Source of the DNA: a phage
Direction: 5' to 3' (one strand)
Length of the DNA stretch: 64,000 nucleotides
Sequence record: PZ674595.1
A program made the translations under genes and the position numbers. The notes below the pieces were generated by a model. That model was not told the origin of the DNA. It saw only the letters and a program-made list of their open reading frames with translations, and made no database searches. Shown here piece after piece: positions 13,617 through 45,123 of the stretch. The first letter of the stretch is position 1. Each line of letters starts with the position of its first letter.

Positions 13617-14042
13617 ATGACAGCTATTAAGAAACTCTACGATGCCGCAAACGTGGCTCTGGATGTTATTGATGATGAAGTAGCAAAAGGCTTTCCTGAA
13701 CCTGATTGGGCGCATCAGCTACGAAACGCTATCGCAGAAATGACCCCACCAGATCCAACCCCCGACGAGACAGACTGGCAGCGATTCATCCGTATGTACG
13801 CTCAGGAAATAGGTCCAACGCCAACGGCAGAGCAGGCAATGCTGCTGAAATACTTCAAAGAGGCGGGAGAGGATTTACCAATTGATGACTCAGCATATTG
13901 GTTCCACTGCGCATGGCGTAAGTATGACGTGATATTCACACAAGGCATGGGAAGCAAAGATATGGTTGTGTGGCATCTACTCCATATAGACACAGCCGTT
14001 GACAGAGTTATTGAACAGTTTTTCCCTAAACAAGAAGATTGA
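13617..14042 (+). CDS. hypothetical protein
   Basis: 141-aa ORF preceded by AAACAATTTGTTT motif and RBS. Confidence 0.4.
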   Translation: MTAIKKLYDAANVALDVIDDEVAKGFPEPDWAHQLRNAIAEMTPPDPTPDETDWQRFIRMYAQEIGPTPTAEQAMLLKYFKEAGEDLPIDDSAYWFHCAWRKYDVIFTQGMGSKDMVVWHLLHIDTAVDRVIEQFFPKQED

Positions 14043-14097
14043 TCGCCTATTCATAACTAACAAAATAAGTAAACACTAACCACAAAAGGAAAAACAC

Positions 14098-14373
14098 ATG
14101 AGAGTTTTAGTTCGAATCGTTACCAGCACTGTCTATGACGTGTTTCCGCTTTTTATGGTCAAAGCCGATGGCCTTAACGACGAAGAAACTGACGCGCTGA
14201 TCCAGCGTATTCTCGTTGAATATACAGGTCATGACGCTGATTCAGTGATGGTTGATGATGATGGTGTTTGTTGGCATAACGGCAACTGTTGGTACGTAGA
14301 AGAGACTCAACAAATCAGTGATGAAGATGCCGAACATCTTGAGCGTATTTTAAGCATCAGCACTTTTGAGTGA
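14098..14373 (+). CDS. hypothetical protein
   Basis: 91-aa ORF; RBS AAAGGAAAAACAC identical in context to many genes of the element. Confidence 0.4.
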   Translation: MRVLVRIVTSTVYDVFPLFMVKADGLNDEETDALIQRILVEYTGHDADSVMVDDDGVCWHNGNCWYVEETQQISDEDAEHLERILSISTFE

Positions 14374-14412
14374 GTTTACAGTAAAATTTATATAAGTTAG
14401 TATCTACCTATC

Positions 14413-14592
14413 ATGAAGATTTTTATTGAATACTTGTTACTCATCGTTTCAATAGCTTTTGTCATCGACTGCATTTTCACTGGTGTCATTCGTAAAGTCT
14501 TTTCCCCGGTGCACGACGTAGTCATAAACGCTTTGGCTATCGTGCTCGTATTTAATTCAGCATTTGATGTAATCAAAGAGGTGGCAGCATGA
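14413..14592 (+). CDS. small hydrophobic peptide (59 aa), below the track cutoff
   Basis: ATG at 14413, stop overlaps start of next gene (ATGA); no obvious RBS. Confidence 0.3.
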   Translation: MKIFIEYLLLIVSIAFVIDCIFTGVIRKVFSPVHDVVINALAIVLVFNSAFDVIKEVAA

Positions 14593-14924
14593 AGGCCATC
14601 CCATTCGCGCTGTTGTTCCTTTCTTCGATCGTTGTGGCCGACACCACTGTTTATCAGTGTGAAATGTCTGTAGCCGACGTTAAGAATGGCGCTCTTACCG
14701 ACGTCATAAAAGCACCATATGGAGCGATGGTCGTAGACAGCGGCGACCAGTTCTATGTTGTGCGTGACGATCGAGTGTTGTCATCCCCATATCTCACAAA
14801 TCGTAATGGCAAATTAACCGGCGTCGGAGAAGACCACTTCGTATACAACAAATACAAGGGCTTCTATGGCGTTCACGCTTCTCAGCAAAGCTACCTTTTC
14901 GATGACTGCAAGGAGGTTGGATAA
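14589..14924 (+). CDS. secreted hypothetical protein
   Basis: N-terminal signal peptide MKAIPFALLFLSSIVVA; RBS AAAGAGGTGG. Confidence 0.4.
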   Translation: MKAIPFALLFLSSIVVADTTVYQCEMSVADVKNGALTDVIKAPYGAMVVDSGDQFYVVRDDRVLSSPYLTNRNGKLTGVGEDHFVYNKYKGFYGVHASQQSYLFDDCKEVG

Positions 14925-15136
14925 TGGCATTAACACTGGCAGGTCTGGAAATCGAGAAAACAAGCGGCTACTGGCGTGCTAAGGGTTTCAAGCAGCCTGG
15001 CATTCTTGAGCGTCTGGAACGTGAAGATGGGTATATCGTCCACCAGCGGCGTGAATGGCGTATGTACGATCCAGAAACAGGAAAACTGACTACAAAAGCC
15101 GGAACACTTTGGGGTCTGTTGAAGAAAATACACTAA
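14924..15136 (+). CDS. hypothetical protein
   Basis: 70-aa ORF overlapping the upstream stop (TAATG). Confidence 0.35.
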   Translation: MALTLAGLEIEKTSGYWRAKGFKQPGILERLEREDGYIVHQRREWRMYDPETGKLTTKAGTLWGLLKKIH

Positions 15137-15184
15137 TAGCACCAACCACTGCGGTGAGTAGTCTGCTCACCGCATTCGTATCCA

Positions 15185-15625
15185 GCTCATTATCCACTGT
15201 AGTCAGTAACAAAACCTTCCTACATATCTGCTAACCACTGTAGCGAGTAGACAGCCTTTCATTCGCATCAAACAACCACTATGGTGAGTATTGGAGTGAG
15301 ATGTCCAGCGGGTATCCACTATGGTGAGTAAGCCTTTGCTGTTTTCAGTGGATATCCACTCGCCACAGTGGATACGCTCAAAGATGAGGGCGACAACAAC
15401 CACTATAGACAGTAAATTTTCCAAGATACCCAGTGACCACTAACCTCGCAGCCCTTGTTTCATCAGTGTTAGTGATCACTAACATTTAATTCAGTATTTG
15501 CATTCTACTGCCTACAGTGGTTATCAACAGATAACGATACTCACTATAGTGGATAGCGAATTACAGATATAAGTAAGGCTCACTACAGTGGATAGTGAGC
15601 CTTACTACTAACTACAGTGGTTGGG
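15185..15625. repeat. iteron array downstream of repA (P1 incA-like copy-control repeats)
   Basis: About ten copies of CCACTATAGTGG-type motifs (e.g. ATCCACTATGGTGAGTA, TCACTATAGTGGATAG, CTACAGTGGTT) in both orientations. Confidence 0.7.
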
Positions 15626-16681
15626 CTATTTGCGAGTCTTTGCCTTGCGCAACTCTTCGAGAAGCGCCAGTTCTTCTTTACTCAACATGACCATTTTGCC
15701 TTCTTTTTCGTCAGGCACAACGTCGATAATGTCATCTTGATTCTCATCTGGGAGGCTATATTCCGTCTCATCATTATCGATTTTTGTTGATATTTGTGCC
15801 TGGCGTAACTTTGGCCGCCTATAGTGGATGACGAAGTAGACCGAGTTTCCGCGCTTAACTTCCGTGTAATCGAGATATCCTATCTCTCGCAGCTGTTCCA
15901 TAGCCTTTCTTACCGTCGCATTCTGAGTAATAGTGCGACTTGTCAGATTAAGTCTGGCGCGTAAACGGGCTAGTGATATTGGTGCCGGATCAGGCGGCAA
16001 ACTTTCAATAAAAGTATAAAGCGCCTGAGCGGATTCTTTTCTTGAGAGTTCGTTTATAGCCCGGAGTTGCAGAAGAACCTTTTTGTCGAACTGGTAGAGT
16101 TCGAAAATCTTGGGATCTGCTTTCAGTTCGACCGTATCGTGCTTGACACTATATTTTGCCGTTTGCACAAGATGCGTTACGTAAAACTCATCAGAGCCTT
16201 TGCTACGGAACGAGATGGTATTTGTGGCAATACGGCTTAGCGAACTGTCCAGGCGTTTGCGTAACTTCGCTGATGACCTGGCGGTCGGAATGCCACACAG
16301 CCTTACAAACTCAACGAACGGCAACGTGACAGTATCGCCAACGACCTTGTGTTTGGCAAACGCGTGGATTATTCCCACCCACGTTTTAAAGTCGTTATCC
16401 ATATCAAGCCGAAGGCCAGAGATCCTTATGTCTTCGTACCCTTCGGCTTTTGCCAGAGACAGCTGTTTGAGTTCAGCAGAGGCATCCATAGAGACCATTT
16501 GCCCCTTTCTTCCTCTGGATGTCGATTTCAGCGTCGGAACGAAGAGGCCCAGACGCATCAAAGCAACAGGCTGAACAGTGTTATTAGTGTTAGGAACCAA
16601 CGTAACAACTTCGCCTGTCTTTTTATCTGTTTCTGAAAATGCTTCAACGATCGCTATGTTTTTATTGCCGTTTTCGCTCAT
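15626..16681 (-). CDS. repA: plasmid replication initiator, P1 RepA-like
   Basis: 351-aa ORF; [45 protein letters not shown] and [16 protein letters not shown] match P1 RepA as I recall it; flanked on both sides by iterons. Confidence 0.75.
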
Positions 16682-16689
16682 TCCAAATG

Positions 16690-17345
16690 TCTCTTGTTAT
16701 TCGACGGCTTTGGTGGCCTTTGCTGATTACAGTGGATAGTAGCACTCATCACAGCGGTTATCCTACCGTCTATAGTGGTTTTTCTCCTCTCTATAGTGGT
16801 TGCTTTGCTCCCTATAGTGGATTATTCGCTCTCTATAGTGGATATCGATCATGTCTGAAGGCAGATGGCACAACGGTTTGAGGTGGGCGGGGATCTTATT
16901 GGGTCTTTATGGGTCTCTTTGGTTCTCTTTGTGATCTGAATTACTGGATCGGGCCTGTGGATAAAAATCAGAGGATTTCAAGAACAGGTAACTCTACTCT
17001 TCTGTGGATATTTAAGGACATAAGAATCATGACTAAGAGTAGAGTTTAAAATATATCTATGTATATCAGTATGTTAATGAAGAATTAAGTCATTAAGTTA
17101 TCCATAAAAGACAATGTGCTCTACTCTCTACAGTGGATATATACAGCTCTCCAGAGTGGTTGTTTTACTCTTCATAGCGGTTATTCAGCTCTCTACAGAG
17201 GTTTCTTTGCTCTCCATAGTGGATGGCAACACCCTTTCAGACCAGTAACCGCAACGGCTAGAGGCGATCGGGGATCTCTTTGGATCTTCTATTTGATCTT
17301 ACTTGGGATCTCTTATTTGGATCTATCCAGTGGATAACTGGGATA
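16690..17345. other. origin of plasmid replication (oriV): two iteron arrays, DnaA boxes, GATC cluster, AT-rich stretch
   Basis: 21-22-bp direct repeats CTCTATAGTGG at 16740-16860 and 17116-17235; DnaA box TGTGGATAA at 16956-16964 and near-match at 17003-17011; six GATC within 17266-17323 as TGGATCT repeats; AT-rich 17040-17110; overlapping track ORFs 16639-16881 and 17116-17337 judged non-coding. Confidence 0.7.
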
Positions 17346-17424
17346 AGTAAAACAGGCAAATGCAGATTAAGGTATGCCTAATGAGTTATCGTAGCATCGG
17401 CCAATAACTACTGAAAAAACGATT

Positions 17425-18069
17425 ATGGATCTAAAACGCACGCGCTGGGTTCGTCGTCTTGAGGACGGCTCCTACACTATCGAATCAAATTCCAACCTGA
17501 ATAAGCAGAAGTTACTTTGTGATATCTGCGGTATAGCGGCGAAGTGCCCGATCTACGAAACCAGAATTAAACTTGATAAGGCTGGTGTGAACTTTCATTT
17601 GAATAGTTGTATCAGGTACGTTCCATTGCTCGCATTTCGTAAACCGATCATCGGATTGGATGCGCCCTACTTCAACACACTCCGTTCAGGAGTAACGTGG
17701 CGAGATCGTTTATCACCAGACAAACTGATTTGCCTTGTATCCGCAGATACAGGAAAAATCATTCGTTTTGGGAAAGTAGACAAGGTTTACTCAGGCCCAG
17801 TTGACGAGATGTTGCGGAAACACAGCCGGTTTAATCACCTCTGCATGGGTGGTGAGAAAATCGAGAAGGTTGAAGAAGTGATCCGCAAATCCTACGGACA
17901 CTTCCTGACCAAAGATAGCCTGCTCACTGCAATCTACATCAGACATGTAAAACGTGAGTTCGACCTTGAATACCATAGCGAAGAAGAACTGAACCTTGTC
18001 GATCCACGTCCTAAAGCTGGCGTCATAAGCATAAATGCAGCGCGTAAAAAGCCCACTGACGCGCTGTAA
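17425..18069 (+). CDS. hypothetical protein adjacent to origin
   Basis: 214-aa ORF; several Cys; no family recognised. Confidence 0.4.
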   Translation: MDLKRTRWVRRLEDGSYTIESNSNLNKQKLLCDICGIAAKCPIYETRIKLDKAGVNFHLNSCIRYVPLLAFRKPIIGLDAPYFNTLRSGVTWRDRLSPDKLICLVSADTGKIIRFGKVDKVYSGPVDEMLRKHSRFNHLCMGGEKIEKVEEVIRKSYGHFLTKDSLLTAIYIRHVKREFDLEYHSEEELNLVDPRPKAGVISINAARKKPTDAL

Positions 18070-18323
18070 CCCTCCAGATCGTATATTGGCGTAGATAGAA
18101 TCTACGCCCCCTCAAAATAGCTCTCATAGCGTTCTACAGTGATCCTGTCTTATTTTTAGTCATACAGACAAGCAAAGTTGCGCCACGATAAATAGGTATA
18201 TACTTACTTATAAATTTTGTATATTAAGGCGCTCGTTTCATTCCTAACATACCGTTATGCATAGTTGTTTACCTCCTCATTGCTCTTAGAATTTGTATCA
18301 AAATAACCACAAAGGAAAAACAC

Positions 18324-19409
18324 ATGACTTTGCCATACGGCGTCATTTCTGACTGCCACTACCATAAATGGGATGCGTTCTCCACGACGAACGCTGAGGG
18401 GCTTAACTCCAGACTTGAAATACAGTTGGAAGCAACGAAAGAAGCAGCCATCGCCATGAAGAAGGCCGGTTGTAAGTACATGTTGGTTGCCGGTGATACA
18501 TTTCACGTCCGAGGAACTGTGTCCCCTTCTGTTTTGCATTACGTAACTGAAACGTACAAGTGGATTATCAACGAGCTTGATCTGACAGTAGTAATGCTGG
18601 CCGGTAATCACGATCTTGAAACCAACGATTCAGTATATAGCGCCAACGCAGCAGCATCGCTGAGTTCTATCGGCGTGGTAATCGTATGTGGCAAGCGCCC
18701 ACACTCAATAAAAATTGGTGATGTGACTGTCCACCTGATTAGCTGGCGTAACAATCATGCGGAGCTTATCAGCGATCTGAAAGCATTACGTAAGAGCGTA
18801 GAAGGTGATAATCATGACGTTGTTATCCATACATCCATTAACAAAGCCATTCCAACAATGCCTGACGTCGGTATCGATGCGCAGGAGTTAAAGGATATCG
18901 GCTTTCGTCTCGTGCTTAGTGGGCATTACCACAACCACAAAGAGGTCATTCCTGGAGTTATCAGTGTCGGTGCACTGACTCATCAAAATTGGGGAGATGT
19001 TGGATCTCTGGCTGGCTACATGATCGTAAACCCGGACGGCAGTTTCAGTCACTACGAAACCAGTGCGCCTAAATTCATTAACCTGGAAGATGATGTTGCT
19101 GATGACCAAATTCGCGGCAACTACGTGCGTTTCCGCGCCGTAATTGAGAACGATGAAGAAGGCATTAAGTACCAGAACATCCTCAAAACAATGGGTGCAA
19201 AAGGTGTCGTGTGCAACTTCATCCGTAAGTCATCAATGATGGAAGGTACAGCCAGCACAACTGAAACCAGCAAAATCGATAGCCTGGGAGAGTCGGTATC
19301 TGCTTATTGCAAGATTGTCCACGATACTGACGGCGGATTTGATCTGAGCAAATTGGATATTTTGTGTCAGGAAATCCTCACCGAAGCGGAGAGTTCGGAG
19401 GCTGTGTGA
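18324..19409 (+). CDS. sbcD: SbcD/Mre11-like nuclease (calcineurin-type phosphoesterase; T4 gp47-like)
   Basis: Phosphoesterase motifs ISDCHYH, VAGDTFH, AGNHD, SGHYH; RBS AAAGGAAAAACAC. Confidence 0.8.
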   Translation: MTLPYGVISDCHYHKWDAFSTTNAEGLNSRLEIQLEATKEAAIAMKKAGCKYMLVAGDTFHVRGTVSPSVLHYVTETYKWIINELDLTVVMLAGNHDLETNDSVYSANAAASLSSIGVVIVCGKRPHSIKIGDVTVHLISWRNNHAELISDLKALRKSVEGDNHDVVIHTSINKAIPTMPDVGIDAQELKDIGFRLVLSGHYHNHKEVIPGVISVGALTHQNWGDVGSLAGYMIVNPDGSFSHYETSAPKFINLEDDVADDQIRGNYVRFRAVIENDEEGIKYQNILKTMGAKGVVCNFIRKSSMMEGTASTTETSKIDSLGESVSAYCKIVHDTDGGFDLSKLDILCQEILTEAESSEAV

Positions 19410-32458: not shown

Positions 32459-33052
32459 ATGATTGCAGCCGAAAAAATCAAACAGCGAAAGCGCGACAAC
32501 TCTCTTCGTGACCTCTGGAGAACACCTGACTGGCTGTTTTCTGCCATTCAACGTTATCTTGGGGTGACATTTGATGTTGACGTTGCCTGCAACAAGGACA
32601 ATGCAAAGCTGCCTAATTTCATAGGCGTTGAGCGTGATGCTTTGAAATCTGAATGGGGACAGCCAGGTACAATTGCCTTCCTCAATCCCCCCTACTCCAA
32701 AATCTCCCCCTGGATTGATGCGGCTATACGTGAGCAGGCTCGCGGAGTTACAACAGTGATGCTAATTCCTCAATCCCTAGATACAAAGTGGTATGAGCGT
32801 GCAACAGAGTGTGCGAATGAGACGATTATTCTGTCTGGTGGCCGCGTAGCGTTTGTCGAGCCTGACGTCAATCTGGGTCAGGTAGAAGTAAACATCAACC
32901 CAGGTGGCAGTATGCTCGTTGTTTTTCGAGGATTCTGTCAGGACGCTGGGCACTCTATAAGCAAGATCCCTTTGGACGTCATGAAAAGTCTGGGAGGGTA
33001 TGATCCTGCGAATGTGATCAGGAAAAAAAGACCATCAAAGAAGGCTGCTTAG
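32459..33052 (+). CDS. phage-type DNA N6-adenine methyltransferase
   Basis: 197-aa ORF with FLNPPYS catalytic motif. Confidence 0.75.
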   Translation: MIAAEKIKQRKRDNSLRDLWRTPDWLFSAIQRYLGVTFDVDVACNKDNAKLPNFIGVERDALKSEWGQPGTIAFLNPPYSKISPWIDAAIREQARGVTTVMLIPQSLDTKWYERATECANETIILSGGRVAFVEPDVNLGQVEVNINPGGSMLVVFRGFCQDAGHSISKIPLDVMKSLGGYDPANVIRKKRPSKKAA

Positions 33053-43595: not shown

Positions 43596-43985
43596 ATGGG
43601 CTTCCCTTCTCCTGCGGCGGATTATGCAGAGAGCCGTATTTCTCTTGATCAGCAACTAATCAGACATCCTTCAGCGACCTACTTCATGCGGGCGGCAGAC
43701 AGCCATCACCGTGAGGGAATATTGCAAGGTGCTTTGCTGGTGGTTGATTCCTCACTTACCCCGGTTGATGGTTCTCTGCTTGTATGCGCTCTGGATGGGG
43801 AATATCGCGTAAAAAGATACCGGAAGTATCCACGTCAGCATCTGGAGGATTTAAGAACCGGTAAGAAGGAAGAATTGCCAAAGGATGACGATGGATGCAC
43901 GGGCAGCAATGCCGTGTTTGGTGTGATCACTCACATTATCAACGACGCAAGAAGTGGCGAGTTTGATGATTGTCCCGTGATGTAG
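43596..43985 (+). CDS. humD: UmuD'-like protein lacking the N-terminal cleavable tail (P1 HumD-like)
   Basis: MGFPSPAADYAESRISLDQQLIRHPSATYFMRA aligns with UmuD residues after the Cys-Gly cleavage site; S24 peptidase-like C-terminus; RBS GAGG. Confidence 0.8.
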   Translation: MGFPSPAADYAESRISLDQQLIRHPSATYFMRAADSHHREGILQGALLVVDSSLTPVDGSLLVCALDGEYRVKRYRKYPRQHLEDLRTGKKEELPKDDDGCTGSNAVFGVITHIINDARSGEFDDCPVM

Positions 43986-44022: not shown

Positions 44023-45123
44023 TCACACTGCGCGGAATGCGATTTCGCCAGGTATTACTTCACCTTGCCAATACATTTGGGCAGCAACGCGATCTGCGAG
44101 GTCACGATAAATAGCCGTAAATTCGCTATCTGGACGACTAATAACGGTTGGTGTTCCGTTATCCAGATCTTCACGAAGAGAGATATGAAGTGGCATTTGG
44201 CCTAACAACTGCGTGTTGTATTTCTCGGCCAGTTTCTGTGCGCCACCGGTGCCAAAAATTGGCTCGTGATGACCGCAGTTACTGCAAATATGCACACTCA
44301 TGTTTTCGACGATACCCAGTACCGGCACTTCGACTTTTTCGAACATCACAATGCCTTTCTTCGCATCGATCAGCGCGATGTCTTGCGGCGTAGTTACCAC
44401 AACCGCACCAGTTACAGGAATGTTCTGCGCCAGCGTCAACTGAATATCACCAGTGCCCGGCGGCATATCGAGAACGAGATAGTCCAGATCAGGCCATAGA
44501 GTTTCCTGCAACATCTGCATCAGCGCCTTGCTGGCCATCGGTCCACGCCACACCATTGCATTGTCGTCGGTGACCAGATAACCAATAGAGTTGGTTGCCA
44601 GGCCATGAGACATGATAGGTGCCATGTGAGTACCGTCAGGTGAGGTTGGACGTTGGTTTTCCGCGCCCAGCATGGTTGGAATTGATGGACCATAGATATC
44701 GGCATCCAAAATACCAACTTTCGCACCTTCAGCAGCCAACGCCAGTGCCAGGTTTACCGCCGTGGAGGATTTACCCACGCCGCCCTTGCCTGAGCTGACG
44801 GCGATAATGTTCTTAACGCCATTAATGCCTGGTTGGTTTTTGACGCGCTTAAGCGTGGCAATGTTGTACGACAGCTTCCAGTCAATAGCCTTTGCGCCAG
44901 TGATACGGAGCAGATCACCACTACATTGCTCTTTCAGGTCTTCAAAAGGCTTATTCCACACGAAAGGCATGATTAGTTCGACATGCAGTGTGTCATCCAT
45001 CAACGCAACATGGTGTAACGCTTTAAGCGTAGTCAGGTTGTGTTTCAGGGTTGGGTGCTGAAAATTAGCCAGCGTACCGGCTACCATTGCTCTCAGGGCA
45101 TCCGGCGATTTGGACTCGCTCAT
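44023..45123 (-). CDS. mrp: iron-sulfur cluster carrier ATPase Mrp/ApbC
   Basis: 366 aa; IIAVSSGKGGVGKSSTAVNLALALAAEGAKVGILDADIYGPSIP and C-terminal ICSNCGHHEPIFG...GEIAFRAV essentially as in E. coli Mrp as recalled. Confidence 0.95.
   Translation of the reverse strand: MSESKSPDALRAMVAGTLANFQHPTLKHNLTTLKALHHVALMDDTLHVELIMPFVWNKPFEDLKEQCSGDLLRITGAKAIDWKLSYNIATLKRVKNQPGINGVKNIIAVSSGKGGVGKSSTAVNLALALAAEGAKVGILDADIYGPSIPTMLGAENQRPTSPDGTHMAPIMSHGLATNSIGYLVTDDNAMVWRGPMASKALMQMLQETLWPDLDYLVLDMPPGTGDIQLTLAQNIPVTGAVVVTTPQDIALIDAKKGIVMFEKVEVPVLGIVENMSVHICSNCGHHEPIFGTGGAQKLAEKYNTQLLGQMPLHISLREDLDNGTPTVISRPDSEFTAIYRDLADRVAAQMYWQGEVIPGEIAFRAV

Follow-up and report, generated by a model that had tools for sequence, protein, structure and literature searches.

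Two tandem P1-oriR-like modules in the IncFIB replicon of an SSU5-type phage-plasmid

The repA locus and its iterons

The repA locus of a phage-plasmid was analysed in a stretch of phage DNA of 64,000 nucleotides (sequence record PZ674595.1; the whole stretch is referred to as the window). The gene content of the window is that of an SSU5-type phage-plasmid, with phage genes alongside a plasmid replicon. A first-pass annotation, made from the letters of the sequence, had proposed a P1-type replicon in which a repA-like gene on the minus strand has iterons on both sides. A position weight matrix (PWM) was made from the region's own repeats (consensus CTACTCnCTAyAGTGGwTA) and used to scan all 64 kb. 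The scan returned 23 iterons of at least 19 bits, every one inside 15140-17228, and the top score elsewhere was 12.4 bits; the flanking arrangement is thereby borne out, with nothing comparable in the rest of the window. Direct reading and repeat finding showed that a single repeat family occupies both flanks of repA, with 12 copies downstream of the gene, six in an upstream module adjoining repA (module A) and five in a second module farther upstream (module B; Table 1).

The downstream array lies at the position of incA in P1 and has a spacing of ∼41 bp in its first block; relatives carry 13-16 copies at the same place, compared with the 12 found here. It had been read as about ten iterons at 15185-15625. 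The array is real, and the count and the extent had to be enlarged, with one of the copies (15140-15161) lying before the proposed start. Both upstream arrays were also present, and their borders (given as 16740-16860 and 17116-17235) were corrected to those in Table 1.

The RepA protein has the Pfam domains Rep3_N (1.3e-10) and Rep3_C (1.3e-4), both over the curated cut-off, and is annotated as RepA in phage Cyrano and in plasmid records. Its homology to P1 RepA, proposed in the first pass, was tested by alignment and amounted to 49% identity over 267 residues (BLASTP, E = 5e-93); the identity is 91% to the SSU5 protein and 69% to a Pantoea plasmid RepA. A search against PDB sequences gave no match at E <= 1, and neither RepA nor either of the neighbouring proteins had a match in NCBIfam. 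Pfam and the direct alignment with P1 RepA are thus the basis of the family assignment.

Table 1. Positions of the elements of the repA replicon in the window.
Feature	Position	Strand	Description	Score or basis
Downstream array, incA-like, putative control locus	15140-15626		12 iterons of 22 nt, six per orientation	PWM 19.5-27.7 bits
Downstream iterons, one orientation	15140, 15188, 15229, 15270, 15310, 15394			
Downstream iterons, other orientation	15336, 15356, 15505, 15537, 15576, 15605			
repA	15626-16681	minus	351-residue predicted iteron-binding initiator, Rep_3 family	Pfam and P1 alignment
Module A iterons (adjoining repA)	16720-16847	plus	six, spaced 22/21/21/21/21 bp	PWM 19.3-26.3 bits
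Module A GC-rich spacer	16848-16887			aligns with module B spacer and P1 spacer
Module A GATC-type tract	16888-16951		phased repeats, partly decayed; true GATC at 16892, 16933, 16947	
Module A DnaA box	16956-16964	minus	TTATCCACA, perfect	
Inter-module spacer	16965-17120		poorly conserved; AT-rich in this lineage only	
DnaA boxes in inter-module spacer	17003-17011, 17098-17106		one mismatch each	
Module B iterons (distal)	17121-17228	plus	five, spaced 23/21/21/21 bp	PWM 19.1-26.7 bits
Module B GC-rich spacer	17229-17265			alignment
Module B GATC tract	17266-17323		phased; six sites at 17266, 17273, 17283, 17295, 17307, 17320	
Module B DnaA box	17329-17337 (with degenerate second box, to 17346)	minus	TTATCCACT, one mismatch	

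Two origin-like modules upstream of repA

Modules A (16720-16964) and B (17121-17346) align end to end through their iterons, spacer, GATC repeats and DnaA-type box. The duplicated origin that had been suggested as a possibility is thus confirmed by direct comparison: the two modules are a tandem duplication, with a period of ∼375 bp, of a whole P1-oriR-like unit. The six GATC sites in module B, already noted in the first pass, form the window's sole cluster with more than three GATC in 60 bp, and the Poisson expectation for such clusters is ∼3e-4 per window. By analogy with P1, this tract is the counterpart of the Dam-methylated repeats of oriR and the probable site of strand opening and of sequestration by SeqA. 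The corresponding tract in module A holds, besides its true GATC sites, three further units that have decayed to GGTCT, GGTCT and GTTCT. A scan of the window also recovered the perfect DnaA box previously reported in module A; written TGTGGATAA, it is one of just two perfect boxes in the window, and relatives show TTATACACA at its position. The box of module B is identical to the first of the two tandem DnaA boxes of P1.

Relation to P1, RepFIB and SSU5-like replicons

The annotated record of P1 gives the order nine incA iterons, repA, five incC iterons, five Dam sites and an outer-end DnaA-binding site. The same order is found here, feature by feature, and together with the Rep3 domains this upholds the P1-type organization of the first-pass annotation. 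Shared with P1 are a set of five iterons spaced by 21 bp, a GC-rich spacer, a phased tract of five or six GATC repeats, one or more outer DnaA boxes and an array downstream of repA. The GATC/DnaA core can be aligned at the nucleotide level (for example GGATCTATCCAGTGGATAA), the P1 core reading GGATCTATCCAGTGGATAATGTGGATAAG and that of the window GGATCTATCCAGTGGATAACTGGGATAAG. P1 differs in having one origin unit, compared with two in tandem here, and nine downstream iterons, compared with 12 in both orientations. The RepA of the window has ∼27 extra residues at its N-terminus and an acidic C-terminal tail of ∼58 residues. Finally, the P1 iterons are of the GATGTGTGCTGGAGGGAAA type, whereas those here read CTCnCTAyAGTGGwT, with no shared sequence. 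Since the iterons are unrelated, the incompatibility type and the specificity differ from those of P1, and by plasmid typing the replicon is classified as IncFIB (pHCM2/pLF82 type) and not as IncY, the incompatibility type of P1. The PLSDB records that were examined individually are likewise typed IncFIB.

In classical RepFIB replicons (F, P307 and pO157, compared via phage RCS47) rep lies, as here, between upstream origin iterons and downstream control iterons, and the GATC/DnaA core is the same; the differences are a single upstream module, a RepA of ∼45% identity and iterons of the ATCGCGTATAGTCAAC type. In FIB the downstream iterons pair with the origin iterons and exert negative control, and the downstream block alone displaces the replicon and exerts incompatibility (PMC11983097). 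The spacer, GATC repeats and DnaA box of module B align with P1 oriR, with RepFIB of phage RCS47, with a Kosakonia plasmid and with the origins of Klebsiella/Shigella SSU5-like elements. The iterons alone vary between the lineages, which would be expected under co-evolution with the initiator.

SSU5, pHCM2, pMT1 and pLF82 (Cyrano), all IncFIB, have the same replicon with the same two modules and downstream array. Relative to SSU5, pHCM2 and pMT1, the lineage of the window is distinguished by an AT-rich inter-module spacer, the perfect TTATCCACA box in module A, its 12 downstream iterons, and a right end of module B that is P1/Klebsiella-like. In the Klebsiella/Shigella SSU5-like elements (pF132_1 and p1538007_2) a replicon occupies the corresponding genomic position, flanked by the same genes (80-84% amino acid identity), with the same GATC/DnaA core and right flank as here; it differs in its RepA (53% identical), its iterons (ACCGCTGACAGCATA) and its single origin module. 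When 14924-18069 was compared with K. pneumoniae pF132_1 and S. sonnei p1538007_2, nucleotide homology resumed within the GATC/DnaA core, at ∼17255. Among SSU5-like phage-plasmids, the replicon resembles a cassette that can be exchanged; with homology resuming in the core while RepA and the iterons diverge between similar flanks, the comparison suggests that Rep/iteron specificity may be swapped by recombination at the shared origin core.

Over 2.3 kb, the region matches Escherichia phage Cyrano (OV696614) at 100% and Salmonella phage SSU5 at 83% nucleotide identity. An identity of at least 99% is reached with 105 plasmid records, chiefly of E. coli and E. albertii; of 382 plasmids with a match, 360 are non-mobilizable. 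Cyrano is the same element as plasmid pLF82 of E. coli LF82, which is present at ∼5.5 copies per chromosome and yields siphovirus particles upon induction with ciprofloxacin (PMC9928086). The identity of the segment to this plasmid with inducible virions substantiates the phage-plasmid lifestyle proposed in the first pass and gives indirect support to the predicted autonomous replication. Overall, it is very likely that the locus is the replicon by which the plasmid-prophage of an SSU5-family phage-plasmid is maintained, an iteron-driven theta replicon of the P1/RepFIB type; the model of module B as main origin, discussed below, is less certain. Earlier work had already established the replicon, its typing and the phage-plasmid lifestyle.

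Conservation and distribution of the two modules

The 743-bp region upstream of repA is ∼80% identical in pMT1 (Y. pestis), pHCM2 (S. Typhi), SSU5 and Enterobacter plasmids, and 77% identical in a second group of E. coli elements. Conservation within the region was measured as the mean identity of all pairs in a six-way alignment with SSU5, pMT1, pHCM2, an Enterobacter relative and E. coli AH04. The iterons and GATC tracts have a mean identity of 93-94% in both modules, versus 80% for the inter-module spacer. The six GATC sites of module B, the three of module A and the three decayed units of module A are all invariant.

The spread of the layout was surveyed at 80 loci with RepA relatives (62-91% identity) from species-representative genomes, of which 78 had enough upstream sequence. 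A script searched for periodic arrays at a lag of 21-23, clusters of GATC-type units and DnaA boxes; it called two complete modules at 36 loci, one at 40 and none at 2. Some arrays were missed by the script, and three loci (L061, L066 and L069) also proved to have two modules when read by eye. The two-module layout persists to ∼67% RepA identity, and to ∼62% in Xenorhabdus. It is complete in a 184-kb plasmid of Pantoea agglomerans, which has no phage character and a RepA of 69% identity. In a neighbour-joining tree of RepA, a single clade unites the two-module loci with their derivatives; its members come from Tolumonas, Cedecea, Buttiauxella, the Cyrano/pMT1 group, Rahnella and several Pantoea/Erwinia groups. 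The duplication may date back even further, because the Xenorhabdus loci L066 and L069 fall in the adjacent Photorhabdus/Xenorhabdus/Kosakonia clade. A single module, adjoining repA, is found in P1, classical RepFIB, the Klebsiella/Shigella type, Kosakonia, Photorhabdus and a second Pantoea clade. The presence of two modules had been called unusual. This holds relative to P1 and not within the present RepA clade, where the sequence survey indicates that a doubled origin is the norm and was brought into the SSU5-type phage-plasmids together with the replicon.

Asymmetry between the modules

At the 36 loci with two modules called by the script, GATC sites number 3-5 in the proximal tract, with a mean of 3.6, and 5-6 in the distal tract, with a mean of 5.5. 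The distal tract has more sites at 35 loci and as many as the proximal tract at one, and the pattern is present in every sub-clade. The distal tract is followed by a DnaA box at 35 of the 36 loci, the proximal tract at 20. In alignments with the single-module origins of other lineages, identity is higher for module B (0.67-0.70) than for module A (0.57-0.61). At nine related loci a full module was found in the distal position only; in the four of these that were read directly (L025, L033, L048 and L057), the proximal GATC tract is lost and the iterons next to repA are kept.

Possible roles of the two modules

By homology with P1, RepA monomers would bind the iterons, and RepA and host DnaA, the latter occupying the outer box of the unit, would jointly open the neighbouring phased GATC tract. 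For the P1 origin it has been shown that DnaA can start the opening and that RepA helps greatly (PMC5043065). Dam methylation of the tract would license re-initiation, which would then be delayed by SeqA binding to the hemimethylated form. The 12 downstream iterons would keep the copy number low through titration of RepA and pairing with the origin ('handcuffing'), and binding of RepA to the iterons adjoining repA would repress the repA promoter. For P1, a need for methylated DNA in replication and a methylation-based control are reported (Abeles and Austin, 1987; Abeles et al., 1993; by their titles, as cited in PMC2865523). With half of the GATC repeats of module A decayed, these units would be hidden from Dam and SeqA. 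Since the six GATC sites, the P1-like DnaA box and the ancestral sequence have all been retained in module B, we give a slight preference to a model in which the distal module is the principal origin and the proximal module acts mainly as the repA operator and as an additional binding partner for RepA and DnaA. More tentatively, and with somewhat less than even confidence, the tandem origin may be ancestral and selectively maintained in a clade that comprises the SSU5/pHCM2/pMT1 phage-plasmids and many plasmids of Pantoea, Erwinia, Rahnella and Xenorhabdus, with the distal copy as a fully Dam/SeqA-controlled origin and the proximal copy as an operator or auxiliary origin that is partly blind to methylation. 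If so, the two copies would share out the jobs that are done jointly by the single incC/oriR of P1, and autoregulation of the initiator would be separated from firing of the origin.

Several points weigh against this division of roles. No experimental work on the origin of this replicon was found, and every mechanistic step is transferred from P1; the present analysis itself speaks to the anatomy, the P1 homology, the duplication, the conservation and the asymmetry. Module A is as conserved as module B among close relatives and has the better DnaA box in the window, which is unexpected for a mere operator. A promoter scan of module A gave weak minus-strand matches (9/12) that are not conserved in relatives, and no convincing repA promoter. 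The nominal sign-test P of 6e-11 for the GATC asymmetry overstates the independence of the loci, which share ancestry. Moreover, at one locus (L062, contig DASXXQ010000321.1 of a Buttiauxella metagenome-assembled genome) an intact proximal module is accompanied by a distal one of which one iteron and three spaced GATC sites remain, so that a proximal module can apparently suffice. L062 was the sole surveyed locus with a decayed distal module (0-450 nt upstream of rep); a second contig binned with the same assembled genome (L052) has both modules.

In principle, both modules could be working origins, either redundant or condition-specific, with for instance module B controlled by methylation and module A partly escaping Dam and SeqA. 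This would account for the purifying selection that, in close relatives, acts on all classes of elements of module A (GGTCT/GTTCT units and DnaA box included), for the persistence of the full layout over the range of RepA identities given above, and for the occurrence of loss in either direction (nine loci distal-only, one proximal-only). It is harder to reconcile with a proximal module that is systematically poor in GATC and less often followed by a DnaA box, given that the GATC repeats are, according to work by Brendler, Abeles and Austin, reportedly critical core sequences of the P1 origin; in addition, two origins 375 bp apart with one shared initiator would compete. We keep the possibility in view because all parts of module A are conserved in close relatives and because of L062, and consider it rather unlikely. 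A sole origin in module A, with module B as a regulatory decoy (an incA-like sink for RepA, DnaA or SeqA that lowers the copy number), is more improbable by a good measure. The placement of module A relative to repA is that of incC/oriR in P1, its DnaA box in the window is perfect, and L062 retains the proximal module only; but it is module B, and not module A, that has kept the ancestral sequence and the full set of GATC repeats, the nine distal-only loci lack a detectable proximal module (and the four read directly a proximal GATC tract), and a decoy would require neither conserved GATC repeats nor the DnaA box present at 35 of 36 loci. It is hardly conceivable that the whole region is a relic and that the element is maintained by phage-type replication genes (DNA polymerase III alpha, recombination proteins) instead of RepA. 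Many phage replication and recombination proteins are indeed annotated in the window, but repA is intact, strong purifying selection acts on the gene and on its sites across hundreds of plasmids that span at least six genera, the copy number of Cyrano/pLF82 is low and stable, and the same replicon is used by plasmids of Pantoea, Rahnella and Erwinia that are not phages. The model with module B as principal origin and module A mainly as operator is the one that we prefer.

Relation to earlier work

Since the replicon and the lifestyle are established, the findings chiefly confirm the reading of the sequence, and the doubled origin is the useful remainder. An origin annotation was absent from the records of this type of replicon that were examined, and no description of the origin anatomy of pMT1, pHCM2 or SSU5 was found in the accessible literature, a scope outside which the 1998 sequence papers on pMT1 fall. 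Nor was an earlier description found of a tandem origin with split functions; the 11 upstream repeats may have been noted before. Replicons of this type maintain phage-plasmids that are common in the clinic, namely pHCM2 of S. Typhi, pMT1 of Y. pestis and the pLF82/Cyrano-like elements of E. coli, some relatives of which carry resistance genes, and also many plasmids of plant-associated Pantoea and Erwinia. Which module fires and which regulates is relevant to curing cassettes based on incompatibility and to the control of copy number; for an FIB replicon, the success of curing was decided by the iteron block chosen (PMC11983097). The doubled origin also offers a natural test of a long-discussed conflict in iteron plasmids, that between autorepression of the initiator and saturation of the origin.

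Further features of the replicon and the element

The first pass had pointed to an AT-rich stretch in the origin region. It is present (17040-17119, 72-80% AT), and a role as a conserved unwinding element was rejected because the sequence is AT-rich in this lineage alone; the inter-module spacer as a whole is 71% AT here versus 55-59% in SSU5, pMT1, pHCM2 and other relatives. The spacer also holds a near-consensus sigma-70-like promoter on the minus strand (17077->17050, TTAACA-16-TATATT, 10/12) that is directed via module A to repA. The sequence that bears it is not conserved in SSU5, pMT1 and pHCM2.

In RepA, the N-terminal extension comprises residues 1-27 (16600-16681) and the acidic tail residues ∼294-351 (15626-15799), which end in a short helix-like motif; neither is present in P1 RepA. 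The tail is kept in the Pantoea homologue and gave a sub-threshold Pfam match to T4_y05I_C. A weaker iteron (15.7 bits) lies on the plus strand at 15812-15833, inside repA and towards the 3' end of its coding sequence. SSU5, pMT1, pHCM2 and E. coli AH04 have it at the same site (15.3-16.9 bits) and the Pantoea homologue does not; constraint on the coding sequence may be enough to explain its conservation.

A perfect 18-bp palindrome, TGTTAGTGATCACTAACA, with a GATC at its centre and unique in the window, is located in a gap of the downstream array (15467-15484), where it could be a site for a RepA dimer or another regulator. It was rejected as a conserved protein site since it is lineage-specific, relatives having instead a conserved direct pair of half-iteron-like ACCACTAAC motifs (here at 15438-15446 and 15475-15483). 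An Rfam scan of 14000-18500 and a tRNA search of the window returned nothing and so gave no evidence for an RNA regulator.

Compared with OV696614, the replicon is 100% identical and most of the rest of the window 95-99%, with a rearranged or divergent patch near 41.1-43.5 kb; the element is a close relative of Cyrano and distinct from that record. P1-type parAB genes were not found among the few open reading frames of the window that were checked. The gene annotated as MinD in Cyrano (44023-45123, minus strand) encodes an Mrp/NUBPL-type P-loop ATPase (PF10609, 2.4e-102) and is no obvious partition ParA; it is adjoined by a gene for an S24 LexA-like peptidase (43596-43985, plus strand). A DNA adenine methyltransferase of the phage type (Pfam Dam, PF05869, 2.5e-38) is encoded at 32459-33052 on the plus strand. 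P1 has its own methylase, which serves methylation independently of the host, and if the enzyme encoded here is specific for GATC, it could likewise keep the GATC-rich origin methylated without the host.

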